Assembly: GCA_963845565.1 (NCBI GenBank)
Contig: CAWJSJ010000005.1
Location: 1 to 64,000 of the forward strand
Length of the DNA stretch: 64,000 bases
From: an uncultured Methylomirabilota bacterium
GTDB taxonomy: Bacteria; Methylomirabilota; Methylomirabilia; Methylomirabilales; 2-02-FULL-66-22
Direction of reading: 5' to 3'
The notes under the pieces are model-generated. The model was not told the origin of the DNA. It saw nothing but the letters and a program-made list of their open reading frames with translations, and searched no databases. Positions 17,221 through 62,905 of this stretch are shown here, piece after piece. A program made the translations under genes and the position numbers. Position 1 is the first letter of the stretch, and the number at the start of each line of letters is the position of its first letter.

Positions 17221-17254
17221 GGACGCTGATGCGGGATCCACAGGGAGGACGGTC

Positions 17255-45974: not shown

Positions 45975-46493
45975 ATGATCGGTGAGATCGAAGCGGTCGT
46001 CGATTCCCTGAATCGGGCACAGGTTCGCTACCTCGTTGTGGGAGGCGTCGCCGTCGTTTTGCATGGATACCTACGAACCACGGCGGATCTTGACCTTGTC
46101 ATTCACCTAGCCCCCGACAATGCCCTGAGGGCGGTCAAAGCCCTGGCGGCCCTACAGTACCGCCCGCGAGCTCCGGTCAACTTCGAGGCCTTCGCGCAAC
46201 GGGAAGCGCGCGAGTCCTGGTTACGCGAGAAGGGCCTGACGGTTTTCTCGCTGTGGAGCCCCGCCCGCCCAACTCTGGAGATCGATCTCTTCGTTTCCGA
46301 GCCATTCGATTTCGAAGTCGTGTATGCGCGGGCGCTTCGGGTGCGGCTGCAGAGATCCGAGGCGACGGTGGTGTCCCTCGACGATCTGATCGATCTCAAG
46401 AGGCAAGTGAACCGCCCGCGCGATCAGGAAGACGTAGCCGCCCTGGAGGCCTTGAAGGGGGAAACGATGCAAGAAGGCGGCCCCGATGAGTGA
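45975..46493 (+). CDS. Pol-beta superfamily nucleotidyltransferase (putative toxin-antitoxin component)
   Basis: VVGGVAVVLHG...RTTADLD, third Asp in EIDLF, C-terminal K...RPRDQED. Confidence 0.85.
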   Translation: MIGEIEAVVDSLNRAQVRYLVVGGVAVVLHGYLRTTADLDLVIHLAPDNALRAVKALAALQYRPRAPVNFEAFAQREARESWLREKGLTVFSLWSPARPTLEIDLFVSEPFDFEVVYARALRVRLQRSEATVVSLDDLIDLKRQVNRPRDQEDVAALEALKGETMQEGGPDE

Positions 46494-46874: not shown

Positions 46875-46930
46875 TTGACAGGCACGATGCGCCTCGGCTA
46901 GTCTGCCGCATTATTGAAACCGGTTTCAAT
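46875..46930 (+). promoter_or_regulatory. Promoter with LacI-type operator
   Basis: TTGACA-18 bp-TAGTCT, then perfect palindrome ATTGAAACCGGTTTCAAT (46913-46930). Confidence 0.85.
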
Positions 46931-46947
46931 GAATCCTTTTTTGGACC

Positions 46948-48057
46948 GTGGCCGTGCCCGAACAGCGCGCACCGATCCATTCTCCCACCGTGTCCGACGT
47001 GGCGCGCCGCGCGCGTGTCTCGCGCGCCACCGTGTCCCGAGTGCTCAACCGGTACCCCCACGTCCGCTCTGAGGTCCGCGCCCGCGTGGAGCGGGCCATG
47101 GCAGCGCTCGCGTATCGACCGGACGCGGTAGCGCGCAGCCTGGCCCGGCGTGAGACGCGGACCCTCGGGTTGGTGGTGACCGACATCACAAACCCGTTCT
47201 ACGCGGAGACGGCGGCGGCCATCGTCAAGACCGCGCGTGCCCACGGCTACACCGTGATCCTCTGCGACACCGACAATATCGCGGATCTGCAGGCAGAGTA
47301 CATCGAGGTCCTCCGCCAGCGGCGGGTGGACGGGATCATCCTGGGTTCGGTGTTCCTCCGCGACCCGGCGGTGGAGCGACTGATCGACTCCGGCATGCCC
47401 TGCATGCTCTACAACCGTCGGCTCCGCTCGGGCCGAGGGAACTACGTGGTCCTGGACAACCTCCGGGCGGGGCGGGAGCTCACCCGGCATCTGCTGGGGC
47501 TCGGCCACTGCCGCATCGGCTTCATCGGGACGCTGGCCGGACTGTCGTCCGCCGCCGACCGACGGCGTGGGTACGGGGCGGCTCTGCGGGAGGCCGGCGT
47601 CCGCCCGCAGGCGCAGTTCGTCCGTATGCGCGGGGTGAAGCCGGAACTGGCGCGGGAAGCGGCCCGGGAGATTCTAGCCCTCCCGGATCGGCCGACCGCC
47701 ATCGTGGCAAGCAGCGACCGGGTGGCGTTGAGCGTGATGGAGATCGCCGCGGAGATGGGGTTGTCCGTCCCCGGTGACCTGGCCGTGGTCGGGGTGGACA
47801 ACATCCCCATGGCCGCCCACCAGGCCATCCAGCTCACGACGGTGGACCAGCACCTCGCCGAGATGGGCCGCCTGGCCGTGGAGGGCCTTCTGGGCATCAT
47901 TCGTGACCCGGAGCGCTATCGGCGGAGTCCGTTGCAGCAGGTCCTGGCGCCGACGCTCATCGTGCGGCGGACCTGCGGGGCGCTCGACCCGCGAGCGACG
48001 GTGCGGGGACGGCGGCTGCGATCATCCGCAGACCACAAAGGAGGCAGTCGTGGCTGA
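46948..48057 (+). CDS. LacI-family transcriptional regulator
   Basis: DVARRARVSRATVSRVLN, ARSL hinge, LTTV. Confidence 0.95.
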   Translation: MAVPEQRAPIHSPTVSDVARRARVSRATVSRVLNRYPHVRSEVRARVERAMAALAYRPDAVARSLARRETRTLGLVVTDITNPFYAETAAAIVKTARAHGYTVILCDTDNIADLQAEYIEVLRQRRVDGIILGSVFLRDPAVERLIDSGMPCMLYNRRLRSGRGNYVVLDNLRAGRELTRHLLGLGHCRIGFIGTLAGLSSAADRRRGYGAALREAGVRPQAQFVRMRGVKPELAREAAREILALPDRPTAIVASSDRVALSVMEIAAEMGLSVPGDLAVVGVDNIPMAAHQAIQLTTVDQHLAEMGRLAVEGLLGIIRDPERYRRSPLQQVLAPTLIVRRTCGALDPRATVRGRRLRSSADHKGGSRG

Positions 48058-49642
48058 GCGCAAGAAACCGATTCTCACGGCGGAGGAAGCTGCCCAGCTC
48101 GTTCCGAGTGGCGCCACGGTCACCGTGAGCAGCTCGGCGGCCCAGCTCGTTCCGGACAAGGTGCTGGCGGGGATCGGGGCGCGCTTTCTGGCGACGGGGG
48201 AGCCGAAGGGACTCACCATGCTCTTCCCGGTGGCGGTGGGCGACTCCTTCGGCACCGTGGGGATGGATCACCTGGCCCACATCGGCCTGATCAAGCGGCT
48301 CATCGGCGGCTCGTACGTGAACGGTCCGGCCTCGAAGCCGCCTCCGAAGATCTACGCCATGATCTTGAACGACCAGGTGGAGGCCTACAACCTTCCCCTT
48401 GGGGTCCTGATGCACCTGCACCGGGATATCGCAGCCAGGAAGCCGGGGGTCATCACCAAGATCGGATTGGGGACGTTCGTGGACCCCCGGGACCGAGGCG
48501 GGCGGATGAATGGCGTGACGCCGCCGGACCTGGTCGAGGTCATCCAGTTGCTGGGAGAGGAATGGCTGCTCTACCGGAGCTTCCCCATCCAGGTGGCCAT
48601 CATCCGGGGGACCTCGGCGGACGTGAATGGGAACATCACCACGGAGCACGAGGGGGTGACGCTGGCCGTCCTGGCCCAGGCGACGGCAGCGCACAACTCC
48701 GGCGGTAAGGTCATCGCCCAGGTGAAGCGCGTGGTGGCCGCGGGCACGCTTGACCCCCAGAAGGTGAAAGTCCCGGGAATCCTGGTGGACGCACTGGTGG
48801 TGGACCCGGACCAGCGCCAGAACACGGGGATTGCTTATGATCCGGCCATCAGCGGCGAAATCCACGCCGCGACGTTTCCGGTCGAGCCGGTGCCGCTCGG
48901 CCCGGAGAAGGTCATTGCGCGGCGCGCGCTCATGCAGATCCGGTCCGGCGACATCGTGAATCTGGGGTTCGGCATCTCCTCCCTGGTTCCGCAGATCGCT
49001 TTCGAGGAGGGGGTGTTCGACCGACTGAACTTCACGGTCGAGCAGGGGGCGGTGAATGGGCTGCCGCTCACCGGCTTCGCCTTCGGCGCCTCCCACAACC
49101 CCGAGGCGATCATCGACTCGCCGGCGCAGTTCGACCTGATCGACGGGGGCGGCGTGACGGTCGGCTGCCTGGCATTTGCCGAGGTGGACGGTGCGGGGAA
49201 CGTGAACGTCAGCCGACTGAAAGCCCAACCCCACGTGCTGGCGGGGGCGGGCGGCTTCATCAATATTGCCATGGGGACGCGAAAACTGGTGTATTGCGGG
49301 ACGCTGATGGCGGGCGGCCTGGACATCCGGATCGAGGACGGCCGGGTCCGGATCGTCCAGGAGGGGCGGTTCCAGAAGTTCGTGGAACGGGCGCAGGATG
49401 TGACATTCAACGGGCCGCGGGCGGCCGAGCAGGGGCAGGAGGTCTGGTACTTCACGGAACGCGGCGTGTTCCGCCTGGATCGCCAGGGACTGCTTCTGGT
49501 TGAGGTGGCGCCGGGCGTGGACCTGGACCGGGACATCCGGTCGAAGGTGGGCTTCCCGCTCCGGGTGGCGCCGGAGTGCCGGACGATGGATGCGCGCATC
49601 TTCCGCCCCGAGCCGATGGGGTTGGCGGCGGAGTGGACGTAG
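48050..49642 (+). CDS. Acyl-CoA:acetate/propionate CoA-transferase (YdiF/Pct-like, fused)
   Basis: GLGTFVDPR, VNLGFG, catalytic Glu in TVEQG, GNVNVS, GGFINI, TERGVF. Confidence 0.93.
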   Translation: MAERKKPILTAEEAAQLVPSGATVTVSSSAAQLVPDKVLAGIGARFLATGEPKGLTMLFPVAVGDSFGTVGMDHLAHIGLIKRLIGGSYVNGPASKPPPKIYAMILNDQVEAYNLPLGVLMHLHRDIAARKPGVITKIGLGTFVDPRDRGGRMNGVTPPDLVEVIQLLGEEWLLYRSFPIQVAIIRGTSADVNGNITTEHEGVTLAVLAQATAAHNSGGKVIAQVKRVVAAGTLDPQKVKVPGILVDALVVDPDQRQNTGIAYDPAISGEIHAATFPVEPVPLGPEKVIARRALMQIRSGDIVNLGFGISSLVPQIAFEEGVFDRLNFTVEQGAVNGLPLTGFAFGASHNPEAIIDSPAQFDLIDGGGVTVGCLAFAEVDGAGNVNVSRLKAQPHVLAGAGGFINIAMGTRKLVYCGTLMAGGLDIRIEDGRVRIVQEGRFQKFVERAQDVTFNGPRAAEQGQEVWYFTERGVFRLDRQGLLLVEVAPGVDLDRDIRSKVGFPLRVAPECRTMDARIFRPEPMGLAAEWT

Positions 49643-49710
49643 GGAAAAATTCGAATTTCGAAATCCGAAATTGAGAGACGGGCGAAAGACCGGCCGAAAG
49701 GGGAGTTGCG

Positions 49711-50160
49711 ATGGAGCGGTACTACGAGGACATGATGGTCGGAGAGGAGCACGTCTCGCCGGCGCGTACCATCACCGAGGCCGACGTGGTGAACTTCTCG
49801 GCCTTCTCGGGGGACTGGAGCCCGGTCCACAGCGACGAGGAGTGGTGCAAGCAGACGCCCTTCAAGACGCGGATTGCCCACGGGCTCCTCGGGCTGGCTC
49901 TGACCGAAGGGCTCAAGTTCCGCATTCCCGAATTCAGCGCGGCGCGCTACATGGCGTCGCTCTACTGGAACTACAAATTCACGGCGCCGATCCTGATCGG
50001 GGATACGGTCCGGCTGAGGGTGACTATCCAGAGCAAACGGGAGACAAAAAAACCGGACCGTGGGATCGTGATCGAGTACGTGGCGATGCTGAACCAACGG
50101 AATGAGGTGGTCGGCGAAGGCGAGCACGGCCTGATGGTCTACCGCAAGGGCAGTCTGTGA
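49711..50160 (+). CDS. MaoC-family (R)-specific acyl-CoA dehydratase
   Basis: RTITEADV, SGDWSPVH, RIAHG. Confidence 0.92.
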   Translation: MERYYEDMMVGEEHVSPARTITEADVVNFSAFSGDWSPVHSDEEWCKQTPFKTRIAHGLLGLALTEGLKFRIPEFSAARYMASLYWNYKFTAPILIGDTVRLRVTIQSKRETKKPDRGIVIEYVAMLNQRNEVVGEGEHGLMVYRKGSL

Positions 50161-50177
50161 CACGAGGGAACCCAAGT

Positions 50178-50260
50178 AACCGCAGATTACGCAGATTGCG
50201 CAGATTCTCCGAGAACCCAAGTGGCGGGATCCATCTGTGTCATCTGTGAAATTAGCGGTT
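50178..50260. repeat. Repeat family R3 (inverted 9-mer arrays)
   Basis: AACCGCAGATTACGCAGATTGCGCAGATT ... ATCTGTGTCATCTGTGAAATTAGCGGTT. Confidence 0.75.
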
Positions 50261-50317
50261 TAGGCCAGATCGCTTGGTGGCCCAGTTGCCAAATTGCCAT
50301 CACTTATGGAGGCGGGA

Positions 50318-51460
50318 ATGGATTTCGAGTTGAACGATGCGCAGCGGATGCTGCGGGACATGGTGCGGGACTTTGCCGAAAAGGAGATCAAACCACGGGC
50401 CGCAGAGATCGACCGGACGGACGAGTTTCCGTGGGATCTGTGGAAGCGCATGGCCGAGCTGGGCATCCTGGGGATGACCCTGCCGCCCGAGTACGGCGGC
50501 TCGGGCATGGACATCGTGAGCTGGGCCATCGCGCAAGAGGAGATGGCGCGTGCTTCGGTGGTAGTGGCCGATATCCAACTTCTCAGCACGCTGATGCAGA
50601 ACATGATCCTCAAGAACGGGACCGACGCCCAGAAGCAGAAGTACCTGCCGGCTCTCGGCTCGGGAGAGAAGATCTGCATCATCGCGCAAACCGAGCCCGG
50701 CGCAGGGTCCGATGTGGCCGGGATCCAGACCACGGCGAAACCGGAGCGGAACGGGTACGTCCTGAACGGCACCAAACGGTTCTTGACCTGCGCCATGCTG
50801 GCCGACCTGGCGATCGTGGTGGCGACCGTGGACAGGAGCAAGGGGCACAAGGGGATCACGCTGTTCCTGGTGGAGAAGGGGACGCCCGGCTTCTCGCCCG
50901 GATCCAAAGAGCACTTGATGGGTGTCAAGGGGATGGGGACGGGCGAGGTGGTCCTGGACAACTGCTGGGTACCGAAGGAGAACCTGCTAGGCGGCGAAGG
51001 GGAAGGATTCAAGCGCGCCATGATGTCCCTCGACACGGGGCGCATCGGCATCGGCTGCCAGGCGGTGGGGCTGGCGCAGGCTGCCATGGAGGAGGCCATC
51101 CGCTACGCCAAGCAGCGGACCGCTTTCGGCGGCCCCATCGCGAACCTCCAGGCTATCCAATTCATGCTGGCGGACATGTCGGCGGGGATCGAGGCGGCTC
51201 GGCTGCGCCTTCGGCACGCCGCGTGGCTGAAGGACCAGGGGCGGTCGATCATTCGCGAAGCCGCCGAGGCGAAGCTGCTGGCGTCGGATCTGGCGGTGAA
51301 GGTGACGGCGGACGCGCTCCAGATCCATGGCGCATACGGCTACAGCGTCGACTTTCCCATCGAGCGGATGTACCGCGAGGCAAAGGTGTATCAGATCTGG
51401 GAGGGCACCAGCGAGATCCAGCGGGTGGTGATCGCGCGACAGTTGTTGAAAGAGTATTAG
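50318..51460 (+). CDS. Acyl-CoA dehydrogenase
   Basis: TEPGAGSD, QIHGAYGY, IWEGTSEIQ. Confidence 0.95.
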   Translation: MDFELNDAQRMLRDMVRDFAEKEIKPRAAEIDRTDEFPWDLWKRMAELGILGMTLPPEYGGSGMDIVSWAIAQEEMARASVVVADIQLLSTLMQNMILKNGTDAQKQKYLPALGSGEKICIIAQTEPGAGSDVAGIQTTAKPERNGYVLNGTKRFLTCAMLADLAIVVATVDRSKGHKGITLFLVEKGTPGFSPGSKEHLMGVKGMGTGEVVLDNCWVPKENLLGGEGEGFKRAMMSLDTGRIGIGCQAVGLAQAAMEEAIRYAKQRTAFGGPIANLQAIQFMLADMSAGIEAARLRLRHAAWLKDQGRSIIREAAEAKLLASDLAVKVTADALQIHGAYGYSVDFPIERMYREAKVYQIWEGTSEIQRVVIARQLLKEY

Positions 51461-51491
51461 TGCTTCATCCGGGCCGCGCAGAATCGGGGGG

Positions 51492-51662
51492 AACCACAGA
51501 TTACGCAGATTCCACAGATTTCAGAGGAAACGGGTCGGGGGAATAGTTTTGAAAGGAGACTCCGAGGGACCGAGGAAATCGCTGATGATGCACATGTCGC
51601 AGACTTCACGGGAGAGCGGAAGGGTAGAATTCGAATCTGCGTAATCTGCGAAATCTGTGGTT
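51492..51662. repeat. Repeat family R3, with ~105 bp between the arms
   Basis: AACCACAGATTACGCAGATTCCACAGATT ... AATCTGCGTAATCTGCGAAATCTGTGGTT. Confidence 0.8.
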
Positions 51663-51722
51663 CCATTCCGTCCTCTGGCGTTCTTGGTGCCTTGGCGGTT
51701 CACAGCTCTTGGGGAGGGTGAC

Positions 51723-52469
51723 ATGCAATTCGCGGGGAAGGTGGCGTTGGTGACGGGCGGGGGGTCGGGGATCGGGAGGGCGACCTGCGAGCTCTTTGCC
51801 GGGCGGGGCGGGGCCGTGGTGGCGGCGGATGTGAACGAAGCGGCGGCCGCGGCGACGGCCGAGGGGATCCGGAAAACGGGAGGGCGAGCGATAGCAGTGC
51901 GCTGCGATGTCACGCTCTGGGATCACGTCCAGGCGGCTGTGGATCGCGCACGGACGGAGTACGGCAGCCTGGATGTGGTCGTCAACTGCGCCGGCATCTT
52001 GAAGGGCCACCTTCTGGAGGAGACGCCGGAAGCCGAGTGGAGACAGATGCTGGACGTGAATCTCACGGGTGCCTTCTTGGTCACCAAAGCGGCGCTCAAG
52101 GCGATGCGGGAGCAGGGTGGCGGTGCCATCGTCCACATCGCGTCGCGCATGGCCATCCGGGTCAAGGAGGGGCACGGCGCCTATGCCGCGGCCAAGGCGG
52201 GCATCCTGCAACTGACCCAGATGGCCGCGCTGGAGGGCGCGCCCCACAAGATCCGGGTCAACTGCGTCTGCCCTGGTTTTGTGGATTCGCCGATGACGCG
52301 CGGCGGATACCAGGACGACGCGTTCGAGGGCTGGAACAAGGTCTGTCCGCTGGGCCGGCCCGCCGTCCCCGAGGATATCGCCAAGGCGATGCTGTTCCTG
52401 GCCTCGGACGAGGCGGCGTTCATCACCGGGGTGGCGTTGCCGGTGGACGGGGGGCGGACGATTCTCTGA
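51723..52469 (+). CDS. Short-chain dehydrogenase/reductase
   Basis: TGGGSGIG, NCAG, YAAAK. Confidence 0.92.
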   Translation: MQFAGKVALVTGGGSGIGRATCELFAGRGGAVVAADVNEAAAAATAEGIRKTGGRAIAVRCDVTLWDHVQAAVDRARTEYGSLDVVVNCAGILKGHLLEETPEAEWRQMLDVNLTGAFLVTKAALKAMREQGGGAIVHIASRMAIRVKEGHGAYAAAKAGILQLTQMAALEGAPHKIRVNCVCPGFVDSPMTRGGYQDDAFEGWNKVCPLGRPAVPEDIAKAMLFLASDEAAFITGVALPVDGGRTIL

Positions 52470-52624
52470 TGAGCCGGCCAATCCGCGCTTTGTCTTTGAC
52501 GGGGGCGCCGGTTCCTGATACCGCTACATGGCCTCAATGTGGCGTGAGGTCCGGGCCGAGGCGGCACGCTTTCCTGGGCCGGCCGCGTTTCGACCGTAGG
52601 TTGTGAGACGATGGGAGTGGCGGC

Positions 52625-53665
52625 GTGAAGTTGCGAGGCGGCGTTTTTGGCTGCGGGATGATCTCGGAGTTTCACCTGCGGGGCTGGCAGCGCATCCCCG
52701 AGGTGGAGATCGTGGCGCTCGGCAATCGCACCCTCAGCCGCGCCGAGGCCCGACGCGACGAGTTCGTTCCGGCGGCCCGCGTGTACGCAGACCTCGACAC
52801 CATGCTTCGCGAGGAGCGGCTGGACTTCGTGGACATCCTCAGCGTGCCCTGGCTCCACAGGGAGCACTGCGTCCAGGCCAAGGCGGCCGGCGTCCATGTG
52901 ATCTGCCAGAAGCCGCTTTGCGATTCGCTGGAGGACGCCCAGGCGCTGCTTCAGGAGATGAAGGGGTATCCCAAGCTCTTCGCCGTGCATGAGAACCACC
53001 CGTATCGTCCGTGGTTTCAGACTGTTCTCGCATGCCATCGAGATGGCAAATTCGGTACGCCCCGTTTCCTGCGCCTCGCGCAATACGATGGAAAGGAGCC
53101 GCCGGAGGCCTATAAGAACGAGGCGAAGCTGGGAGTCCTGCTGGAGTATGGCACGCATCTGATTGACATGCTCCTGACCCTCCTTGGGACTCCGACTCGC
53201 GTGTATGCGCGCCTGAGCCATGGAAATCCCCGAATGCGGGGAGAGCATCTGGCGTTCGTGGTGTTCGAGTATCCGGAGACCACGGCGGTCGTCGACATCG
53301 CGTGGAAACCGGGCGGACTGCCCCACGGCGGGTTCATCCTGGAAGGGGACACGGGCGCGGTCCTGTACGAGGGCACGATGACGCGCGGTACCGCTTCGCG
53401 GTTCCGGGTCACCCAGGGGGATGCCGGAGTGATCGACGAGATGCGGTCGCCCTACGACGACTACGTGGAGAGCTTTTACCGCTTGGAGCGTGAGTGTGCG
53501 GACTGCATGCTCACCGGAAGGCCGGTCACCCAGTCGGCCGCGCGAAACTTTCAAACGCTCGCGGTGACTTTCGCGGCGTACCGGTCGGCGGAGACCGGCC
53601 GGATCATCGAGATTGACCGCTTCCTGGAGACCGAGTCGAAGGGGCAGGGGTCTTGCCGCCATTGA
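52625..53665 (+). CDS. Gfo/Idh/MocA-family oxidoreductase
   Basis: GCGMIS, CQKP, HEN, EYGTHLID. Confidence 0.9.
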   Translation: MKLRGGVFGCGMISEFHLRGWQRIPEVEIVALGNRTLSRAEARRDEFVPAARVYADLDTMLREERLDFVDILSVPWLHREHCVQAKAAGVHVICQKPLCDSLEDAQALLQEMKGYPKLFAVHENHPYRPWFQTVLACHRDGKFGTPRFLRLAQYDGKEPPEAYKNEAKLGVLLEYGTHLIDMLLTLLGTPTRVYARLSHGNPRMRGEHLAFVVFEYPETTAVVDIAWKPGGLPHGGFILEGDTGAVLYEGTMTRGTASRFRVTQGDAGVIDEMRSPYDDYVESFYRLERECADCMLTGRPVTQSAARNFQTLAVTFAAYRSAETGRIIEIDRFLETESKGQGSCRH

Positions 53666-53706
53666 TGCGTGACCATCCCGCGGGTCTTGCCGAAGGAGGA
53701 ACGAGT

Positions 53707-54192
53707 GTGGTCAATGTATTGCTGAAGGTGCTCGACTGGTTCTGCAACGTGACATCGCTCATCATCCTCTATGTCACCGTGGTGGTGATCTTCGTCCAGG
53801 TGATCTGCCGCTATGTTCTCGAGGTGGCCCTTCCCTGGACCGAGGAGTTCGCCCGCTTTGCGTTTCTCTGGCTGATCTTCCTGGCCAACGCCATGGCCGA
53901 GCGCCAGAAGGAGCACTTCCGGGTGAGTTACTTCGTGGAGCAGGCCCCACGGAGGCTGCGCTACGGCTTCTGGGTCGCCGGCGAAATCCTCATCTTCACC
54001 TTCTTCATCTGGCTGCTCATGGATAGCCTGGCCTTCGTGCAGATGGGCAAACGGATGATCTCACCCGTGATGCAGCTTCGCCTAGACTGGATCTACTGGG
54101 GGCTCCCGGCAGCCGTGATGCTCAGCCTCCTGAACCGGTCCCGTAACATCGTGGCCGTCCTTCACGAGCGGCCCGACAACCCGTTCGCTTGA
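53707..54192 (+). CDS. dctQ: TRAP transporter small permease
   Basis: QVICRY, WTEEFAR, HFRV. Confidence 0.9.
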   Translation: MVNVLLKVLDWFCNVTSLIILYVTVVVIFVQVICRYVLEVALPWTEEFARFAFLWLIFLANAMAERQKEHFRVSYFVEQAPRRLRYGFWVAGEILIFTFFIWLLMDSLAFVQMGKRMISPVMQLRLDWIYWGLPAAVMLSLLNRSRNIVAVLHERPDNPFA

Positions 54193-54210
54193 GCCGCGGA
54201 GGAGTCGTCC

Positions 54211-55503
54211 ATGCTGAGTGGAACCGTCTTATTGCTGCTCTTCTTGGTGTTGATGTTCATGGGCATCCCGGTCGCGCACTCCATGATCATCACCGCCTAC
54301 ATCACCATCAAGTTCATCCATCCCGAGATCCCGACGATCATCGTGGCGCAGCGGCTCTTCGGGGGGGCCGATAATTACATTCTCCTCTGCATTCCCTTCT
54401 TCATCTTGGCCGGCGATCTGATGTCCATGACGACCCTCTTCGACCGCCTGATCAAGGTGGCCAACGCGATGGTGGGACACATTCGAGGGGCGCTCTCCCA
54501 CATCACCATCGTGGTGGCGATGTTCTTCGCCGGGATCACCGGGGCGGCGGTCGCCGACACCTCGGCCGTGGGGACGGTCCTCATCCCGGCCATGATCAAA
54601 CAGGGGTACAGCCGGGCCTACTCCACGGCGCTTACTGTCGTGTCCTCGACCATCGGCGTAATCATCCCGCCGAGCAACCTTATGGTGGTGGCGGCACTGG
54701 TGTCCTCTTCCTCGGTCGCCGCGCTGCTTCTGGGCGGGGTGATCCCGGGCGTCCTGGCGGCGGCTTCGCTCCTTGTCGTGAGCGTGTACTATGGGATCAA
54801 GTACAACTTCCCGAAAGAGCCCAAGCTCACCTGGGGGGGGCGCGCCAAGGCGCTCTGGCACGGCATCCCGGCGCTCGGCATCCCCGTCGTCCTCATGGGC
54901 GGCATCCTCACCGGCATCGTGACCCCGACCGAGGCGGCCAACATCTCCATCATCTACGCCATCATCGTCGGGCCCATCATGATGCGCGGGTTCCCACCGT
55001 TGAAAGAGATCTACAGGAGCTCGGTCGGGGTGTGTACCCGGACATCGGCCGTGATGATCGCCGTGGGCGCCTCGGTCATCTTCGGCTGGATCCTGGCCAT
55101 CGCCCAGGTGCCGGAGGCCATCGCCGAGTTCATCACCACTTACACCTCCAGCAAGATTCTCATCATCGCCGGGATGCTGTTTACCTACCTCGCCATTGGG
55201 ACGTTCCTGGACGCCATACCCATCATCCTGATCTTCACGCCGATCTTTCTTCCCTTGGCCGAGAAGCTGGGCATCCCGGTGGTGGCCTTCATGGTGACGA
55301 TGGTCTTCGCCTCGGCTATGGGGTTGGCCAGTCCCCCTTGCGGTTCCTGTTTGTGGGTAGGCGCGGCCATCGGCGATATTCAGGTGGAGAAATTCACCTG
55401 GGAATTGATTCCGTTCCTGAGCGCGATGACCGCCATCCTGGCGCTGATTGCATACTGGCCTGACGTCATCATGTGGTTGCCGAATCTCTTGCTCGGAAAA
55501 TGA
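54211..55503 (+). CDS. dctM: TRAP transporter large permease
   Basis: IPFFILAG, TGAAVAD, IPPS, TPTEAA. Confidence 0.95.
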   Translation: MLSGTVLLLLFLVLMFMGIPVAHSMIITAYITIKFIHPEIPTIIVAQRLFGGADNYILLCIPFFILAGDLMSMTTLFDRLIKVANAMVGHIRGALSHITIVVAMFFAGITGAAVADTSAVGTVLIPAMIKQGYSRAYSTALTVVSSTIGVIIPPSNLMVVAALVSSSSVAALLLGGVIPGVLAAASLLVVSVYYGIKYNFPKEPKLTWGGRAKALWHGIPALGIPVVLMGGILTGIVTPTEAANISIIYAIIVGPIMMRGFPPLKEIYRSSVGVCTRTSAVMIAVGASVIFGWILAIAQVPEAIAEFITTYTSSKILIIAGMLFTYLAIGTFLDAIPIILIFTPIFLPLAEKLGIPVVAFMVTMVFASAMGLASPPCGSCLWVGAAIGDIQVEKFTWELIPFLSAMTAILALIAYWPDVIMWLPNLLLGK

Positions 55504-55606
55504 GAGGGGGTGATTGCCGCCGGAAGCAGTCGTGGGGGCTAGGGCAACATGGGTCGGCCTTGGCTCCTGTCGTTGGAGAATCGTGAATCCCACGAAGGAG
55601 GCATCC

Positions 55607-56611
55607 ATGGATCGCAAGCGCGTTGCACGGTTTGTTTTCACGGTCGCCGTCCTGGCGGTAGCCGGCCTGATCGCGGCCGTTCCTGTCGCCCAGGCCGGGC
55701 AGGTGACGCTGAAGCTGGCAACGAGCCAGCCGCCGAAGGGCGGATTTCTGGGCGATACCCCCAAGGTGTTCGCCGACGAGGTGGAAAAACTCACCAAGGG
55801 GCAGGTGAAGGTCCAGGTTTTCCACTCCGGCTCGCTCAGCTCCAACGAGGCCGAGCTGTTCCAGATGGCCCAGAGCGGCGCGGTGGATCTCGCGATCGGG
55901 GCCACCACTTATATCCTGGGCTGGACTCCTCGGGCCAAGGTTTTCGATCTCCCCTACCTGTTCGAGGGCGCGCCCCACTTCAAGAAGGTGGTGCAGGGGA
56001 AGGTGGGTGAGGTCATCGCCAAGGAGGTCGAGGACGACGGGGTCTATCTCATCACCTACATCCTTCCCGGCGTGCGGAGCATCTTCAGCACCAAGCGGTC
56101 CATCGAGAAGATCGAGGACGCCAAGGGCATGAAGATCCGCAGCATGCAGAGCCCGGTGTACATCGATATGTTCAAGAACATGGGCATGCTGCCGACCGCT
56201 CTCCCCGCCTCGGAGCTGTACACCTCGCTCCAAACGGGCGTGGTGGACGCCGGCGAGAACGACGCCGCCAGCGTGGTGAGCTGGGGCTGGGTGGACGTGA
56301 TCAAGTTCTACTCGTTGAACGAACACTCCATCTCCTGCAACGTGATGATCGTGAACAAGAAGAAGATGGACAGCCTGCCCGCCGACGTTCAGAAGGCCAT
56401 CCGCGAGGCGGGAAAGAAGGCGGAGAACTACCAGCTCGACTACATCCAGAAGGCGCTGGCCGAGAACCTGGAGAAGATCAAGGCCAAGGGGGTCAAGGTC
56501 AACGTCATCACGGACCGGAAGCCCTTCCAGGATGCGGTGAAGGACATCATCGCCAAGTACGAGCCGGAGATCGGCAAGGACCTGATCCAGGCCGTCCGCG
56601 ACGCGAAGTAG
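55607..56611 (+). CDS. dctP: TRAP transporter substrate-binding protein (copy 1)
   Basis: Signal peptide; KGMKIRS, ELYTSLQTGVVDAGEN. Confidence 0.95.
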   Translation: MDRKRVARFVFTVAVLAVAGLIAAVPVAQAGQVTLKLATSQPPKGGFLGDTPKVFADEVEKLTKGQVKVQVFHSGSLSSNEAELFQMAQSGAVDLAIGATTYILGWTPRAKVFDLPYLFEGAPHFKKVVQGKVGEVIAKEVEDDGVYLITYILPGVRSIFSTKRSIEKIEDAKGMKIRSMQSPVYIDMFKNMGMLPTALPASELYTSLQTGVVDAGENDAASVVSWGWVDVIKFYSLNEHSISCNVMIVNKKKMDSLPADVQKAIREAGKKAENYQLDYIQKALAENLEKIKAKGVKVNVITDRKPFQDAVKDIIAKYEPEIGKDLIQAVRDAK

Positions 56612-56631
56612 CCGCCCCGAGCCACCCGAAG

Positions 56632-56669
56632 CCCGGAGGCGTGGGGCATTTCTGCCCTGCGTCTCCGGG
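56632..56669 (+). terminator. Stem-loop after dctP copy 1
   Basis: CCCGGAGGCGTGGGGCA-TTTC-TGCCCTGCGTCTCCGGG. Confidence 0.5.
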
Positions 56670-56809
56670 GCGGCACCCTGTCAGATCCAGGATGCCTGGG
56701 CGGTCAGGATCGGTCGCGCCGACCTTCCGCTGCAGGAGCGCTGCGAGATGTCGACATACGGTCCGTCGAGTCGGCGGCGGAGCCGGCGACGGCCGAGGAG
56801 GCAAATGCG

Positions 56810-57808
56810 ATGAGTATCTGGAGCGTAATGCGCTGCGCGATGGTTCCGCTGGTCGTGTGTGTGGTCGTCTTGGCCGGGTTCGCGGAGGCTGGCGAGTTCA
56901 CCCTGAAGCTGGCGACCAGTCAGCCACCCAAGGGGGGATACCTCGGCGGGATGGAGAAGGTCTTCGCCGATGAATTGGAGAAACTGACCAAGGGCCAGGT
57001 CAAGACGCGAATCTTCCACTCCGGTTCGCTCAGCTCCAACGAGGCGGAACTGGCCCAGATGGCCCAGAGCGGGGCCGTGGACGCCTCAATCGCCGCCACC
57101 ACCTACATTCTCGGCTGGGCCCCATCCATGAAGGTGTTCGATCTGCCGTATCTCTTCGAGGGCGCGGGCCATTTCAAGCGGGTGGTGCAGGGGCCGGTGG
57201 GCGAGAAGCTGGCCAGGCAGGTCGAGGATGACGGCGTGGTGTTGGTTGCGTATACTCTTCCCGGCATTCGGAGCATCTTCAACACCAAGCGTCCCATCGG
57301 GAGCCTCGAGGACGCCAAGGGGATGAAGATCCGCAGCATGCAGAGCCCCGTCTATGTCGACATGTTCAAGTCCTTCGGGATGCTGCCCACTCCGATGCCA
57401 TCCTCCGAGCTCTACACCTCGCTCCAGACGGGCGTGGTGGACGCCGGCGAGAACGATCCGGCCAGCGTGGTGAGCTGGGGCTGGGTGGACGTGATCAAGT
57501 ATTACTCGCTGGACGAACACTCGCTCACAGCATGCGTGCTCCTGCTGAACAAGAAGCGGTTCGACGGTTTCTCCCCCGAGATACAGAAGGCCATCCGCGA
57601 GGCGGGGAAGAAGGCCGAAACCTACCAGCTTGACTACATCGAAAAGGCGGCCCTCGAGAATCTGGAGAAGATCAAAGCCAAGGGGGTCAAGGTCAACGTC
57701 ATCGCGAACAAGAAGCCTTTCCAGGATTCGGTCAAGCACATTGTCGCCCAGTACGAGAAAGAGATCGGCCCCGACATCGTGCAGGCGGTGCGAGACGCAG
57801 CGAAGTAG
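56810..57808 (+). CDS. dctP: TRAP transporter substrate-binding protein (copy 2, tandem paralog)
   Basis: Long identical stretches shared with copy 1. Confidence 0.95.
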   Translation: MSIWSVMRCAMVPLVVCVVVLAGFAEAGEFTLKLATSQPPKGGYLGGMEKVFADELEKLTKGQVKTRIFHSGSLSSNEAELAQMAQSGAVDASIAATTYILGWAPSMKVFDLPYLFEGAGHFKRVVQGPVGEKLARQVEDDGVVLVAYTLPGIRSIFNTKRPIGSLEDAKGMKIRSMQSPVYVDMFKSFGMLPTPMPSSELYTSLQTGVVDAGENDPASVVSWGWVDVIKYYSLDEHSLTACVLLLNKKRFDGFSPEIQKAIREAGKKAETYQLDYIEKAALENLEKIKAKGVKVNVIANKKPFQDSVKHIVAQYEKEIGPDIVQAVRDAAK

Positions 57809-57887
57809 GGGTGCGGACGCCTGGGCGGAGTCAGGGCTTCGCCCCGGCAGACCGGCTGGGAACGCAGGAGTGATGGAGGACCCGACG

Positions 57888-60257
57888 ATGCGTGCGCCGC
57901 AAGATCGGACGGCGAGGCTGCGCAACCGACTCATGGGCCACGAGCCTTCCGTGTGCCATGAGCGCGCGGCGATCGTGACGGAAGTATACGAACGACTGTC
58001 GGGCACCCTATCGCCGATCCTGCTCCGGGCGCACGCGCTGGCCGCTGTCCTGGACCGAATGTCCGTTTTCATCGGGCCCGATGAGCTGATCGTCGGCAAC
58101 CAGGCCAGCCGGCCGCGCTCGGCGCCGATCTTTCCGGAATACTCCTGGGAGTGGATTCTCGAGGAGTTGGACACGCTGCCGACGCGCGCGGCCGATCGGT
58201 ATGCCGTTCCGCCCGAATCACGGGAGGCGCTCCGGGACATCCTGCCCCGGTGGCAGGGGAAGTCGTTCCGCGACCGGGCCGTTCACGCGTTACCCGAGGA
58301 CGTCCTCCAGTCCCATCAATCGCTGCTCTTCCTGCTCACCAGCATGGGTTGCGGCGTGGGGCACCTGGCGCCGGATTACGCGCGGGTGCTCACCCGGGGT
58401 CTTTCGGCGATCGCCCGGGATTCGCGGGAGCGGCTGACAGCGCTGGATCTGACCGATCCGGACTCGATCCGGAAGCGGGACTTCTGCCAGGCCGTCGCGG
58501 TGGTGGCCGAAGCGGCGATCCGGTTCGCCGGCCGTTTCGCGGAGCGTGCGGAACAGATGGCGGCCGCAGAGGCATGCCCGGACCGGCGAGCCGAGTTATC
58601 GGAGCTCGCGCGAATCTGCCGGAAGGTGCCGGCCGAACCGGCGGACACCTTCCACGAGGCGCTGCAATCCTTCTGGTTCGTTCACCTCGTCATCCAGATC
58701 GAGTCGAACGGCCACTCCATCTCGCCGGGCCGCTTCGATCAGTACATGAGCCCGTTCTGCGAGGCCGACCGGATCGGCGGGCGTCTCGATCGCGACGGCG
58801 CGCTGGAGCTGCTCGACTGCCTCTGGGTCAAGTTCAACGAGATCATGAAGCTGCGCGACAAGACGGCCTCGATCGGGTTTGGGGGATACCCGCTGTTCCA
58901 GAACCTGATCGTCGGCGGGTTGACACGCGACGGCCGGGACGCCACCAACGACCTTTCGTATCTGTGCTTGGAGGCCACCCGGCGGACGCGCCTCCCGCAG
59001 CCGTCGCTGTCGGTCCGCATCCACGCCGATACACCGCGCGAGCTCCTCCGCGCGGCCGCGGACCTGGCGCGGGAAGGGCTGGGACTTCCGGCGTTCTTCA
59101 ACGACGACGCCATCGTCCCGGTGCTCCAGAACATGGGTGTGCCCCTGGAAGAGGCCCGGGGCTATGCCGAGGTCGGTTGCGTCGAACCCCAGGTGCCGGG
59201 CAAGACCAACGGGTATTATCCGGCAGGCTTTCTGAACCTGGGCAAGGTGCTGACCATGGCCCTCCATAACGGGACCGACCCGGTAACCGGGAAACAGCTC
59301 GGTCCGGCCGATCCGGAGGGCCAGGGCTTCGCGTGTTACGGCGACATCGTGGCGGCGCTCGACCGGCAACTCGACCACGTCATCCGGCTGATCGTGATCG
59401 GCGACAACATCCTCGACGACCTGCACGGGAGGCTCGCGCCGAACCCGTTCGTCTCCCTGCTGGTGGACGATTGTCTGGCGCACGGCCTGGCGTACGAGCA
59501 GGGCGGAGCGGTCTACAACTACACGGGGCCGAACAGTGTGGGGCTGGCCAACGTGGCGGACGCCCTGATGGCGATCAAGCGCCTGGTCTTCGAGGAGCGG
59601 CGGGTCGAGATGAACGCCCTCTTGGCGATGCTCGACGAGGACTTCGTTGAACGTGAGAGCGGCCGGCTCCTCCTGCTCAACCGTGCCCCCAAGTTCGGCA
59701 ACGACAACGAGGAGGTGGACCAGATCGCCCGCGACCTCGCCACGCGAATCCTGACGGGATTCAAGCAGTACCGGAACCCGCGCGGTGGCCGGTACGAGCC
59801 GGGGTTGCAGAGTATCTCCGCGCATGCGCTCTTCCGCGACGCGGTCGCCGCCACACCAGACGGCCGGACGACCACGATGCTGCTGGCCGACGGCGGGATC
59901 TCTCCCGCCCAGGGGCGCGATCGGCGCGGCCCCACCGCGGTGATCCGGTCGGCGGCCCGGCTGGACCATCGGGAGGCCTCGAACGGAACGCTCCTCAATG
60001 TCAAGCTGAGTCCCCAGTCGGTCGCCGGGGAGGCGGGGTTGGAGAACCTTGCAGCACTGGTGCGAACGTACTTCGGCCTGGGGGGGCAGCACATCCAGTT
60101 CAATGTGATCAACACCGCCGTCCTGCGCGACGCCCAACGACACCCCGAATGCCACCGAGACCTGGTCGTGCGCGTGGCGGGCTTCAGCGTCCTCTTCACC
60201 ACCATCGACCCGGTGCTGCAAGAGGACATCATCGAGCGCACCGAGCACCGTGTCTGA
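57888..60257 (+). CDS. Glycyl radical enzyme (eliminase class, glycerol/propanediol dehydratase-like scaffold)
   Basis: Cys loop VGCVEP; Gly loop HIQFNV...VRVAGFS; GVGH; ESNGHS; RBS GGAGGA. Confidence 0.95.
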   Translation: MRAPQDRTARLRNRLMGHEPSVCHERAAIVTEVYERLSGTLSPILLRAHALAAVLDRMSVFIGPDELIVGNQASRPRSAPIFPEYSWEWILEELDTLPTRAADRYAVPPESREALRDILPRWQGKSFRDRAVHALPEDVLQSHQSLLFLLTSMGCGVGHLAPDYARVLTRGLSAIARDSRERLTALDLTDPDSIRKRDFCQAVAVVAEAAIRFAGRFAERAEQMAAAEACPDRRAELSELARICRKVPAEPADTFHEALQSFWFVHLVIQIESNGHSISPGRFDQYMSPFCEADRIGGRLDRDGALELLDCLWVKFNEIMKLRDKTASIGFGGYPLFQNLIVGGLTRDGRDATNDLSYLCLEATRRTRLPQPSLSVRIHADTPRELLRAAADLAREGLGLPAFFNDDAIVPVLQNMGVPLEEARGYAEVGCVEPQVPGKTNGYYPAGFLNLGKVLTMALHNGTDPVTGKQLGPADPEGQGFACYGDIVAALDRQLDHVIRLIVIGDNILDDLHGRLAPNPFVSLLVDDCLAHGLAYEQGGAVYNYTGPNSVGLANVADALMAIKRLVFEERRVEMNALLAMLDEDFVERESGRLLLLNRAPKFGNDNEEVDQIARDLATRILTGFKQYRNPRGGRYEPGLQSISAHALFRDAVAATPDGRTTTMLLADGGISPAQGRDRRGPTAVIRSAARLDHREASNGTLLNVKLSPQSVAGEAGLENLAALVRTYFGLGGQHIQFNVINTAVLRDAQRHPECHRDLVVRVAGFSVLFTTIDPVLQEDIIERTEHRV

Positions 60258-61170
60258 GCCGGCGACCGACCCATCCGGGATCATCTTCGACATCCAGCGG
60301 TTCTCGGTGCACGACGGGCCGGGTATCCGTACGCTGGTCTTCTTCAAGGGCTGTCCGCTCGCCTGCCTGTGGTGCTCGAACCCCGAGTCGCAGCGGTTCG
60401 ATCCCGAACTCCTCTTCGATCCGACGAATTGCCTCGCCTGCGGCGGCTGTGCGGAGGTGTGCCCTCACGGAGCCGTCTGGCGCACTGCCGAAAAGTTGGC
60501 GTATGACAGGGGCCGATGTCTTGCGTGCGGCGCGTGCGCCGACGCCTGCCCGGCCGAGGCGCGGACGGTGGCCGGGCGGCGGGTCGCGGCCCCAGACGTG
60601 GTGGCCGAGGTCTTGAAGGACGCCCCGTTCTACGCCAACTCCGGTGGGGGGGTGACCCTGGGGGGCGGTGAGCCGCTGGCCCAATCGGATTTCGCCCGTG
60701 CGATCCTCGCGGGGTGCCGTTTCCATGGGCTCCATACCGCGATCGAGACTTGCGGCCATGTCCCGTGGGCGGCCTTCGAGTCGATCCTGCCCTGGACCAA
60801 TCTGTTCCTCTACGACCTCAAGCACGTGGATGCGGCGACGCACCGGGGGCAGACGGGTGGGGACATCGCGCTCATCCTCTCCAACCTGGAGCGGCTCGTC
60901 GGCGCCAGCGCGACGGTGGTCGTCCGTGTGCCGGTTGTCCCGGGATTCAACGATTCGGCGGAAGATATCCGGGCTATCGCCCGGCAGGTCGCCCGACTTG
61001 GGATCGGGGCGCTTCACCTTTTACCCTACCACCGGCTCGGTCAGAACAAGTATCGGCTGGCGGGTCGGCAGTACGAATTCGCGGGCGGCGACCCAGTGGG
61101 GGACGGTACATTGGCAACACTCCGGGACGCAGTTGCACATCTTGGCCTGTCCGTCACGATCGGCGGGTAA
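60250..61170 (+). CDS. Glycyl radical enzyme activating enzyme (radical SAM with ferredoxin insert)
   Basis: HDGPGIRT, CPLACLWC, CLACGGCAEVC, CLACGACADAC, GGEP, LPYH. Confidence 0.95.
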   Translation: MSEPATDPSGIIFDIQRFSVHDGPGIRTLVFFKGCPLACLWCSNPESQRFDPELLFDPTNCLACGGCAEVCPHGAVWRTAEKLAYDRGRCLACGACADACPAEARTVAGRRVAAPDVVAEVLKDAPFYANSGGGVTLGGGEPLAQSDFARAILAGCRFHGLHTAIETCGHVPWAAFESILPWTNLFLYDLKHVDAATHRGQTGGDIALILSNLERLVGASATVVVRVPVVPGFNDSAEDIRAIARQVARLGIGALHLLPYHRLGQNKYRLAGRQYEFAGGDPVGDGTLATLRDAVAHLGLSVTIGG

Positions 61171-61236
61171 TCGGTTTGGTTTCGGCTTGACGCCTGCGGG
61201 GGGATGTGGTCTGCTTTTCGGCGGGAGGTGGTCGGC

Positions 61237-61425
61237 GTGACGACATGGGGTATCGTTGGACTGGCGTTGCTGTTGGCCTACATTGCGGTCTGCTTCGGGA
61301 GGATCGCCGGCAAGCACGGACGGAACCCGATCCTCTACGGTGTTCTGTCCATCATCTCGCCGGTCAATCTGATCCTGCTCGGAATCTGGGCGTTCTCTCG
61401 GACGGAAACTACAACGAGACGTTGA
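61237..61425 (+). CDS. Small two-TM membrane protein
   Basis: GGAGG RBS; TM-IAGKHGRNP-TM pattern. Confidence 0.6.
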   Translation: MTTWGIVGLALLLAYIAVCFGRIAGKHGRNPILYGVLSIISPVNLILLGIWAFSRTETTTRR

Positions 61426-61461
61426 ACGATCTCGTTCCGCGCTGGTCAAAGGAGCGTCATC

Positions 61462-62364
61462 ATGCCTGATACCGCACTTGGCTTTCTCGGACTGGGCGTC
61501 ATGGGCGGGCCGATGGCCCGGAATCTGGTGAAGGCCGGCTATCCGGTGACCGCCTACGATCCCGACCCCGGCCGGCTGAAGGCCTTCACCGACGCCGGGG
61601 GCAACGCCGCGGCCTCGGCGGCCGCGATCGCCCGGGCGGGAGAGATCGTTTTCCTGTCGCTTCCCACCGGGGACGTGGTCCGGCAGGTGGTCATGGCGGA
61701 CGGGGGGCTCGCCTCCACGATGCCCTCGGGCAGCCTCATCGCCGACCTGAGCACCACGGAGGCAAAGTTGGCCCAGGACGCGGCGGCGGCCTGTGCCACG
61801 CGCGGGATCACCTTCATGGATACCCCGGTGAGCGGGGGCGAGCAGGGGGCCATCGACGCGACCCTGTCCATCATGGTGGGCGGGGCCGCCGCCGGCTTCG
61901 CCCGCGTTGCGCCCATCCTGGCCTGCATGGGCCGTTCCGTCGTGCACATGGGGGGGAGCGGCCTGGGGCAGGCGACCAAGCTCATCAACAACATGATCGT
62001 CGCCGCCGGCTTCGCCGCGGTCTGCGAGGCGTGGGCGCTCGGCGCCAAGGTCGGCCTGGATCCGGCCATGCTGCACGAGGCCATCAAGGGGGGCTGGGCG
62101 GGATCGCGGGTCATGGAAGAGACGGTCCCCCGCCTCTTGGCCAGGAACTTCGTCCCCGGCGGGACCGTGGACATCGCGGTCCGGGACGTCGCCTACGGCC
62201 TGAACATGGCCCGCGGCCTGGATGTCCCGGTTCCGGTGGCGAGCCTGGCCCATGAGCTGTTCCGCATGGCCAAGTCCCAGGGGCAGGGGCCGAAGGCCCA
62301 GCCGATACTCATCACCCTCTGGGAGCAGTGGCTGGGGATCACCGTCGGCGGGGGGAAAAGCTAG
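61462..62364 (+). CDS. Beta-hydroxyacid dehydrogenase family (3-hydroxyisobutyrate dehydrogenase/tartronate semialdehyde reductase-like)
   Basis: GLGVMGGPMA, DTPVSGG, KLINN. Confidence 0.92.
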   Translation: MPDTALGFLGLGVMGGPMARNLVKAGYPVTAYDPDPGRLKAFTDAGGNAAASAAAIARAGEIVFLSLPTGDVVRQVVMADGGLASTMPSGSLIADLSTTEAKLAQDAAAACATRGITFMDTPVSGGEQGAIDATLSIMVGGAAAGFARVAPILACMGRSVVHMGGSGLGQATKLINNMIVAAGFAAVCEAWALGAKVGLDPAMLHEAIKGGWAGSRVMEETVPRLLARNFVPGGTVDIAVRDVAYGLNMARGLDVPVPVASLAHELFRMAKSQGQGPKAQPILITLWEQWLGITVGGGKS

Positions 62365-62756: not shown

Positions 62757-62775
62757 GGAGGTCCGAAGGGGGTTA

Positions 62776-62877: not shown

Positions 62878-62905
62878 CCGCCTGGCCCGGTTGCGGGGGA
62901 CGCTC

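Follow-up and report, generated by a model that had tools for sequence, protein, structure and literature searches.

A TRAP-linked clade of glycyl radical enzymes, sister to glycerol and propanediol dehydratases and nested among CoA-ester genes in Methylomirabilota: candidate sugar-acid dehydratases

Glycyl radical enzymes (GREs) of the eliminase and isomerase type are recognised by a cysteine loop of the form CXE, a C-terminal glycine loop, a PFL-like barrel and an adjacent radical-SAM activase. The sections of a June 2026 review that deal with these reactions put the C-O eliminases at six and the isomerases at three, and name no sugar acid among their substrates (PMC13450708 sections 5.6, 5.7 and 7), and the same review speaks of whole GRE clades without experimental validation. 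Here we describe a GRE that carries all four hallmarks, and for which radical formation is predicted, encoded in a 64,000-nucleotide stretch of DNA from an uncultured Methylomirabilota bacterium (GenBank assembly GCA_963845565.1, contig CAWJSJ010000005.1, positions 1 to 64,000; hereafter the window). The gene lies beside those of a tripartite ATP-independent periplasmic (TRAP) importer, in a run that also encodes CoA-ester enzymes and that a first-pass annotation had read as one dedicated pathway. On sequence comparison, the GRE is matched by no characterised enzyme and is part of a clade of its own, sister to glycerol dehydratase (GD) and the 1,2-propanediol dehydratase of the GRE kind (PD). 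The locus is made up of two modules, a GRE-TRAP unit being nested in a genus-wide CoA-ester operon, and the GRE itself is probably a sugar-acid C-O eliminase, that is, a radical dehydratase of an imported sugar acid.

Both by sequence and by the fold of a model with pLDDT 94, the nearest solved relatives are PD and GD (43-46% identity; Z 54-56, rmsd 1.4-1.5 Å). The PDs of GRM3/5 microcompartments (PDB 5I2G and 9RCO, the latter from Raoultella; PMC12756279) give the best fold match (Z 56.5, 44-46% identity) and likewise have Phe at GD position 339, while GD from Clostridium butyricum (DhaB1, PDB 1R8W/1R9D; Z 54.4, rmsd 1.5 Å, 43% identity) also has its activase adjacent. The GCVE loop named in the first-pass annotation is indeed present (C436/E438), as is an RVAG loop bearing G770. 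In the alignment, the GRE keeps His164, His281, Ser282, Phe333, Cys433, Glu435 and Gly763 (GD numbering), among which the roles of Cys433, Glu435 and His164 have been described for GD (PMC13450708 section 5.6.1) and that of Phe333 is described as well (PMC7077986). In its own numbering, the key residues are C436, E438, H164, H281, S282 and G770, joined by the clade marks Y449, N554, Q646, H651 and F771. The kept GD reaction centre points to a vicinal diol as the substrate of a radical C-O elimination.

The remainder of the pocket is unlike that of GD. Asp447 is replaced by Pro, His446 by Tyr, Tyr640 by Gln, Ser642 by Ile, Asn645 by His, Gln549 by Asn and Tyr339 by Phe, Tyr764 is also changed, and the beta-1 loop is shorter; these positions come from the alignment, and Asp447, Tyr339, Tyr640, Ser642 and other GD residues have roles in the GD pocket. 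We compared 73 rows of the clade with 17 PD-like rows (one clade row was binned with the outgroup). Asp447 is replaced in 73 of 73 clade rows, and Gln646, His651, Asn554 and Gly452 are found in all 73 and Tyr449 in 70, against none of the 17 PD-like rows; Phe771 and a one-residue insertion are similarly invariant in the clade and absent from the PD-like rows. No clade-specific Arg or Lys occurs in the pocket segments of the 73 rows, and HypD is described as holding its carboxylate by uncharged polar residues (PMC7077986). The loss of the pocket Asp, the gain of neutral and His donors and the link to a TRAP importer together suggest a carboxylated substrate.

Gene context separates the GRE from both relatives. 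GD is accompanied by an alcohol dehydrogenase, whereas here the setting is TRAP and CoA genes. GRM loci encoding PD carry shell genes, whereas the lack of such genes that was claimed for this locus extends to the whole genome (98.7% complete), where PF00936 has 0 matches, the control being positive in E. coli and Synechococcus. With regard to PD, the pocket changes are as they are against GD, and the GRE has the motifs GYYPA and QSISAH instead of GWHDA and YPVSAN.

Does the GRE then belong with any of the more distant characterised enzymes? It passes only the broad PFL2/GD family model, and falls below the NCBIfam cut-offs for HypD (641 against 1100 bits), CutC (548 against 1050), HpfG (577 against 1000), HpsG (555 against 1000) and PflD-type enzymes (646 against 1109). 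Where HypD has Asp278, Ser334, Tyr450 and Thr645, the GRE has His, Phe, Phe and Ile, and where CutC has Asp216 it has His164. Opposite the Arg-Gln-Arg sulfonate anchor of IslA, IseG and HpsG stand Cys160, His164 and Gly644 (positions inferred by spacing), and the arginines that hold the sulfonate in IslA and HpsG (PMC8473560) thus have no counterpart.

HpfG, the dehydratase of 2,3-dihydroxypropane-1-sulfonate, gives an aldehyde product that is reduced downstream. It sets a precedent for a GD-like GRE that dehydrates an anionic diol to an aldehyde, and according to the same section of the review no experimental structure of HpfG exists (PMC13450708 section 5.6.1). Besides its low score against the HpfG model, our GRE differs in having no clade-specific Arg and no sulfonate genes nearby. 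Among the YbiW/PflD isomerases of anhydroglycolysis, YbiW shares with it His164, His281 and Ser282, a short beta-1 loop and the Ser-Ile pair at GD positions 641-642, and aldolase-type partners occur in one lineage of the clade; the GRE is, however, 38-40% identical to these isomerases and lies outside the YbiW branch, has Phe, Tyr and Asn in place of YbiW Ser333, Arg446 and Leu549, has pocket residues unlike those of PflD too, and is associated with TRAP import of an acid rather than with a phosphorylated sugar. The first-pass annotation did not recognise the gene set as a setting of CutC, HypD, IslA, GD or PD, and the comparison bears this out and extends it to HpsG and HpfG. The GRE-TRAP unit is real, conserved and uncharacterised; its enzyme appears to work like GD, PD or HpfG, but fails membership in each of these groups.

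The phylogeny agrees. In a tree of 74 rows (FastTree, SH-like support; three rows were excluded, one a misframed translation and two paralogs of other clades), the clade has support of 99, is sister to GD/PD (100), and has the YbiW group next outward; the GRE does not cluster with a characterised enzyme, and its altered pocket gives a full active-site match to none. The new motif set is shared by 86 of the best 120 GRE homologues, the others being 33 of GD/PD type and one truncated sequence. Only 1 of 150 representatives at 50% clustering has the motif, so the clade is compact. A motif scan yielded 20 genome and 41 metagenome loci, that is, 61 clade loci, which are not dereplicated, and the named hosts are Methylomirabilota, Spirochaetota, Bacillota and one genome labelled Myxococcota. 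Within Methylomirabilota, 5 of 251 genomes yielded the GRE, and each of the five belongs to this genus. A plasmid search for close orthologs returned at best 36% identity for DctP, 39% for the beta-hydroxyacid dehydrogenase of the locus and 43% for the GRE, and a literature search found no published description of the clade, most subscription journals and supplements being outside its reach.

The GRE genes of the clade usually adjoin those of the importer. Of the 61 loci, 41 have TRAP genes no more than 2 kb from the GRE (in 3 of these, all deletion-scarred, only a TRAP fragment remains), as do 18 of the 22 loci with at least 1.5 kb on both sides; the pairing recurs across Methylomirabilota, Spirochaetota and Bacillota. 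Both binding proteins of the locus carry the KIR arginine that had been pointed out earlier, together with a second Arg (GxRSIF) and an Asn (GEND), and this two-Arg and Asn clamp has a described role in binding organic anions (PMC11668362). The same DctP subfamily stands beside the GRE at 52-62% identity in Spirochaetota, some Bacillota and a low-GC group; loci from Oscillospiraceae have a different subfamily, and the clamp is kept in both. Among the nearest solved DctPs (27-31% identity) are binders of galacturonate, glucuronate and sugar acids, although ligand names were legible for only a minority of the fold-match titles. The GRE, its activase and the TRAP genes also decay together: three loci (L049, L054 and L081) retain LacI and transaldolase-like genes but have a GRE with an internal deletion or truncation, joined to a dctM fragment. 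In the closest relative (G009:C22, L023), the GRE and the beta-hydroxyacid dehydrogenase gene are broken by frameshifts or stops, which may reflect assembly error or decay.

The CoA genes behave differently. An ortholog of the CoA-transferase (77-97% identity) occurs in 17 of 20 relatives from the genus, usually accompanied by MaoC, the acyl-CoA dehydrogenase (ACAD) and the short-chain dehydrogenase/reductase (SDR) and sometimes by the beta-hydroxyacid dehydrogenase of the 3-hydroxyisobutyrate dehydrogenase family (HIBADH), whereas the GRE occurs in 4 of the 20. Of the 17, 13 yielded no GRE ortholog, several of these genomes being incomplete, and in four relative loci the absence is clean and contiguous. 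Thus G004 keeps the order LacI, CoA-transferase, MaoC, ACAD, SDR, Gfo, TRAP and HIBADH with the GRE and activase alone missing, in G005 and G006 the SDR runs directly into HIBADH, and G013 is without TRAP, GRE and HIBADH. Conversely, a GRE with CoA-transferase, MaoC and ACAD no further than 8 kb away is seen in 2 of the 61 clade loci, both from Methylomirabilota, and in 0 of 10 loci of other lineages that have at least 8 kb of sequence to either side. We therefore reject a single dedicated 15-gene pathway; of the expectation that homologs would keep their neighbours, the TRAP half stands and the acyl-CoA half does not.

When the GRE entered this setting can be approached through the CoA-transferase tree. 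The CoA genes and HIBADH flank the GRE in the window and in three relatives, and the arrangement in a fourth relative (G018), split over two contigs, is compatible with this. The GRE-bearing genomes fall into two separate, supported subclades, each with GRE-less members, and a single clade is rejected (p-AU 7.5e-143), which speaks against one recent insertion. The simplest reading is that of an old nested cassette, lost repeatedly, with repeated insertion at the same site as the formal alternative. Since the CoA module also works without it, the GRE would be an optional anaerobic feeder.

The LacI operator of the first-pass annotation belongs to this second module. The palindrome is there, directly after the promoter-like site TTGACA-N18-TAGTCT and as a single exact copy in the genome, and it is kept upstream of lacI in five other loci (L019, L024, L077, L111 and L121), exactly so in G013 (L111), whose locus has no GRE; in G004 (L117) it has one mismatch. 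As it is conserved even at a GRE-less locus, it marks the lacI/CoA promoter rather than the GRE, and control by LacI of the GRE 11 kb downstream is something we infer. A scan for promoters and terminators gave counts no higher than shuffled sequence (2 against 1.6 and 7 against 8.5, respectively), so the operon is putative. Contigs from sediment RNA libraries reach across the dctP genes and portions of the GRE, one bridging dctP2 and the GRE, but other stretches are covered too, with no silent control, and we did not use them as evidence.

What might the two modules do together? We infer all chemistry at the locus from sequence. The TRAP importer would take up a polyhydroxy monocarboxylate and, under anoxia, the activase would install the Gly770 radical. 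As in GD, Cys436 would abstract hydrogen from a terminal CH2OH, Glu438 would deprotonate and His164 would protonate the leaving hydroxyl, with the loss of Asp447 and the gain of Gln646, His651, Asn554 and Tyr449 accommodating the carboxylate. From a 2,3-dihydroxy acid, either glycerate or one of its 2-C-branched relatives, the elimination would give a 3-oxo acid, to be reduced to a 3-hydroxy acid by the HIBADH-type enzyme and carried to a saturated acyl-CoA by CoA-transferase, MaoC and ACAD with electron-transfer flavoprotein (ETF); for glycerate, 3-hydroxypropionate would pass through acryloyl-CoA to propionyl-CoA. A 2,3-dihydroxy acid with a terminal CH2OH would account for every partner, since a 3-oxo acid is a substrate of the HIBADH family and a 3-hydroxy acid suits the CoA-transferase, MaoC and ACAD.

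The route from 3-hydroxypropionate via acryloyl-CoA to propionyl-CoA is known. The locus resembles it in having a CoA-transferase, a dehydratase, an AcrC-like ACAD with ETF and a beta-hydroxyacid dehydrogenase, but differs in that the ACAD falls below the AcrC cut-off (Table 1) and MaoC takes the place of a crotonase; both substrate and direction are predictions. In the genome, the locus ACAD is the only full-length one found, a single ETF pair is present (G000:C1 ~1035600-1045650) and there is a gene of the methylmalonyl-CoA mutase family; no methylmalonate-semialdehyde dehydrogenase lies above cut-off and no true thiolase was found, only weak partial matches. Canonical beta-oxidation is rejected for want of a true thiolase, and on this complement a reductive route to propionyl-CoA fits better. 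Genes of the heme-copper oxidase family suggest that the host is probably not a strict anaerobe.

The best overall explanation we can offer, although we stop short of calling it probable, is a GRE that dehydrates a small imported sugar acid, giving a semialdehyde for the neighbouring enzymes to reduce and deoxygenate. The chain from semialdehyde through 3-hydroxy acid to deoxygenation as a CoA ester fits the locus but is somewhat doubtful. More specifically, we regard as rather unlikely a glycerate-type dehydratase that turns a carboxylated diol into a semialdehyde and so opens a radical path from sugar acids to acids of the propionate type, in a clade with interchangeable downstream modules.

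Several observations weigh against the small-acid explanation. First, the pocket geometry is read off an alignment, in which the beta-1 loop is shortened and de-aromatised as in YbiW and Ser647/Ile648 are YbiW-like too; loop and Ser-Ile pair suggest a substrate larger than C3. Second, the CoA module has the 13 GRE-less relatives noted above, and five hosts of other lineages contain no close ortholog of the locus HIBADH (best 37-41%) or CoA-transferase (best 41-49%, in 3 of the 5), so the GRE product there goes elsewhere. Third, the ETF genes stand beside a membrane Fe-S oxidoreductase-like gene, an arrangement that often marks the oxidative direction of an ACAD. Fourth, in the DctP fold ranking the isethionate binder IseP is level with the binders of sugar acids (Z 40.3 against 41.0). 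Finally, the clade's neighbours elsewhere, by family name sugar-acid enzymes and as such in favour of a sugar-acid substrate, include isomerase-, epimerase-, transaldolase- and pyruvate dehydrogenase (PDH)-like genes that suit C5-C6 keto acids more than a C3 acid. Across the clade loci, KduI/IolB-like genes occur in 6, RpiB-like in 4, IolO-like in 8, transaldolase pairs in 7 and LarA-like racemases in 5, and an SDR reads as gluconate-5-dehydrogenase-like. One lineage combines an IolO-like epimerase and two transaldolase-like genes with a true GarR (455 bits, cut-off 397), a tartronate-semialdehyde reductase that yields glycerate; another has a PDH-like E1a/E1b/E2 set with IolO-like or KduI-like genes; and in Oscillibacter loci Gfo is accompanied by an RpiB-like or a KduI/IolB-like gene, which alternate in one slot after dctM. 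The PDB held no match for the KduI-like neighbour, and the Oscillibacter Gfo was weakly matched (80 bits).

A close contender, though on balance a somewhat doubtful one, is that the GRE has a larger acid as its substrate (a C5-C6 aldonate, uronate or anhydro-sugar acid), the CoA module being a co-regulated neighbour with its own substrate. Hydrogen would be abstracted at a secondary carbinol, as in YbiW and HpsG, to give a deoxy-keto acid (e.g. a methyl-ketone acid) that aldolases, transaldolases or a thiamine pyrophosphate-dependent complex would cleave. The loop and the Ser-Ile pair, the YbiW group as next branch outward, the alternating RpiB-like and KduI-like genes and the existence of the CoA module without a GRE all favour it, and the two lineages with transaldolases, GarR and IolO-like genes or with E1a/E1b/E2 and IolO-like genes would parallel the YbiW reaction, which is followed by an aldolase (PMC13450708 section 5.7). 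Yet the GRE keeps Phe336 (GD Phe333), where YbiW and HypD have Ser to make room, and has Tyr where YbiW has Arg (GD position 446); moreover, this locus has no such cleavage genes, and the GRE's long persistence within the CoA operon would be left unexplained. An inositol dehydratase, as IolB-, IolO- and Gfo-like neighbours might imply, was set aside because Arg-clamp DctPs bind anions and the neighbours fall below the iol cut-offs.

A divergent diol, polyol or sulfonate dehydratase akin to GD, PD or HpfG, its TRAP link incidental or serving a hydroxysulfonate, is improbable: PD and GD are the closest solved relatives, IseP ties among the DctP folds and sulfolactaldehyde reductase belongs to the HIBADH family, but Asp447, His446, Tyr640, Asn645 and Gln549 are all changed, two of the inferred sulfonate positions hold C160 and G644 instead of Arg with no clade-specific Arg or Lys to replace them, the HpfG and HpsG scores are far from their cut-offs, shell genes are absent and there are no sulfonate genes among the annotated neighbours. 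That the enzyme breaks a C-N or some different bond of an amino or cyclic hydroxy acid, in the manner of HypD or HplG, or carries out chemistry other than elimination is very improbable, for although His651 and Gly452 match HypD positions and an AcnX-like gene lies near one clade member (L067), the GRE has His281/Ser282 instead of HypD Asp278, is 36% identical to HypD and well below its model cut-off, and has no recurrent proline or amino-acid pathway genes among its clade neighbours.

The features of the locus are collected in Table 1. Its 15 co-directional genes (46948-62364, + strand) are each intact with a single terminal stop, by sequence reading and family scans, and agree in order and family with the earlier annotation; intergenic gaps are -8 to 262 nt, and the co-directional run reaches beyond the locus (39947-63097). 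Besides the activase of the locus, no GRE activase in the genome exceeds the cut-off. The HIBADH scores below GarR (266 against 397 bits), HIBADH (210 against 292), LtnD (178 against 350) and sulfolactaldehyde reductase (177 against 348), its nearest PDB entries being tartronate semialdehyde reductase and 2-hydroxymethylglutarate dehydrogenase. In the PDB series nearest to the Gfo/Idh/MocA protein, entry 5UI9 is an Agrobacterium radiobacter oxidoreductase (PMC7535918). The 62-aa ORF is kept in the closest relatives only (86-91% in L023, L048 and L075).

Table 1. Features of the GRE locus, in window coordinates
Feature	Position	Strand	Basis
Putative sigma-70-like promoter, TTGACA-N18-TAGTCT, weak -10	46875-46904	+	read directly; below consensus-scan threshold
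Perfect 18-bp palindrome, putative LacI-type operator 5' of lacI itself	46913-46930		sequence read
LacI-family repressor	46948-48057	+	Pfam LacI + Peripla_BP
Family I CoA-transferase (YdiF/FadX-like), core CoA module	48050-49642	+	Pfam CoA_trans; FadX model 362 bits (cut-off 750)
MaoC-type (R)-hydratase/dehydratase, core CoA module	49711-50160	+	PF01575, neighbour conservation
Short-chain ACAD	50318-51460	+	NCBIfam AcrC (acryloyl-CoA reductase) scores best, 466 bits (cut-off 640)
SDR oxidoreductase, core CoA module	51723-52469	+	family scans, neighbour conservation
Gfo/Idh/MocA oxidoreductase, accessory, patchy in genus	52625-53665	+	family scan; nearest PDB 5UHW series, E 3e-32
TRAP small permease DctQ	53707-54192	+	PF04290
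TRAP large permease DctM	54211-55503	+	TIGR00786 above cut-off
TRAP binding protein DctP1 (two Arg + Asn anion clamp)	55607-56611	+	family scan, alignment
TRAP binding protein DctP2, 76% identical to DctP1	56810-57808	+	family scan, alignment
GRE, 794 aa, uncharacterised clade sister to GD/PD	57873-60257	+	PF02901 + PF01228, tree, model
GRE activase (radical SAM + ferredoxin insert)	60250-61170	+	TIGR02494 355 bits, cut-off 174
62-aa hydrophobic membrane ORF	61237-61425	+	sequence read; no Pfam match
Beta-hydroxyacid dehydrogenase (HIBADH/GarR family, no subfamily assigned), part of core CoA module	61462-62364	+	family models, all below cut-off

Other features of the window and genome are recorded here in their own right. 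Two tandem Zn-dependent dehydrogenases (window 43737-45865), the second with Asp at the expected catalytic Zn-binding Cys, lie 5' of lacI; they stand beside the CoA module in several relatives and immediately precede the CoA-transferase in L119 and L125. Between them and lacI is a nucleotidyltransferase-like ORF (45975-46493; DUF6036, weak) that is not called there in G009 or G014. Directly 5' of the CoA-transferase in L019, L115, L118, L120, L122 and L123, and not in the window, is an SdhA/TfrA-like flavoprotein without an Fe-S partner. A short intergenic repeat with a 15-base core occurs in both orientations (window 50183, 51497, 51657 and 62454; 22 genome copies with at most one mismatch). 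Very high RNA-library contig depth with many loose ends at window ~62770-62880 and 63340-63640 is consistent with widespread repeat or structured elements that different organisms share. Window 3731-18004 holds additional catabolic gene clusters, with a nickel-pincer isomerase group 22 gene, an FSA-like aldolase, two TRAP systems, SDRs and an isopropylmalate-synthase-like gene. Elsewhere in the genome, a second sugar-acid-type cluster (G000:C2 ~861000-877600, L126) comprises GntR, TRAP, IolO-like, IolB-like, SDR, Gfo and aldolase-like genes, families that flank the GRE clade in other lineages, as well as a CoA-transferase paralog (45%); its SDR is 58% identical to the one adjoining the GRE in L033. 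A second, divergent GRE of 740 aa (G000:C1 ~940277-942499; L129:10278-12500, minus strand), with relatives in G002, G005 and G009, carries Asn where the CXE motif has Glu, and next to it no activase was called. The ETF pair adjoins, by names read from sequence, a 657-aa membrane Fe-S oxidoreductase-like gene, a stand-alone B12-binding mutase subunit and a MeaB-like GTPase.

The clade extends from sediment Methylomirabilota to Spirochaetes and gut-type Oscillospiraceae, with one GRE-TRAP unit apparently plugged into several different downstream modules. As it is compact, has a sharp pocket signature and comes with its own importer, its substrate should be findable through the soluble DctPs. If the proposal is true, a new reaction would join those of radical enzymes, and sediment and gut-type bacteria would have an anaerobic route for sugar acids.

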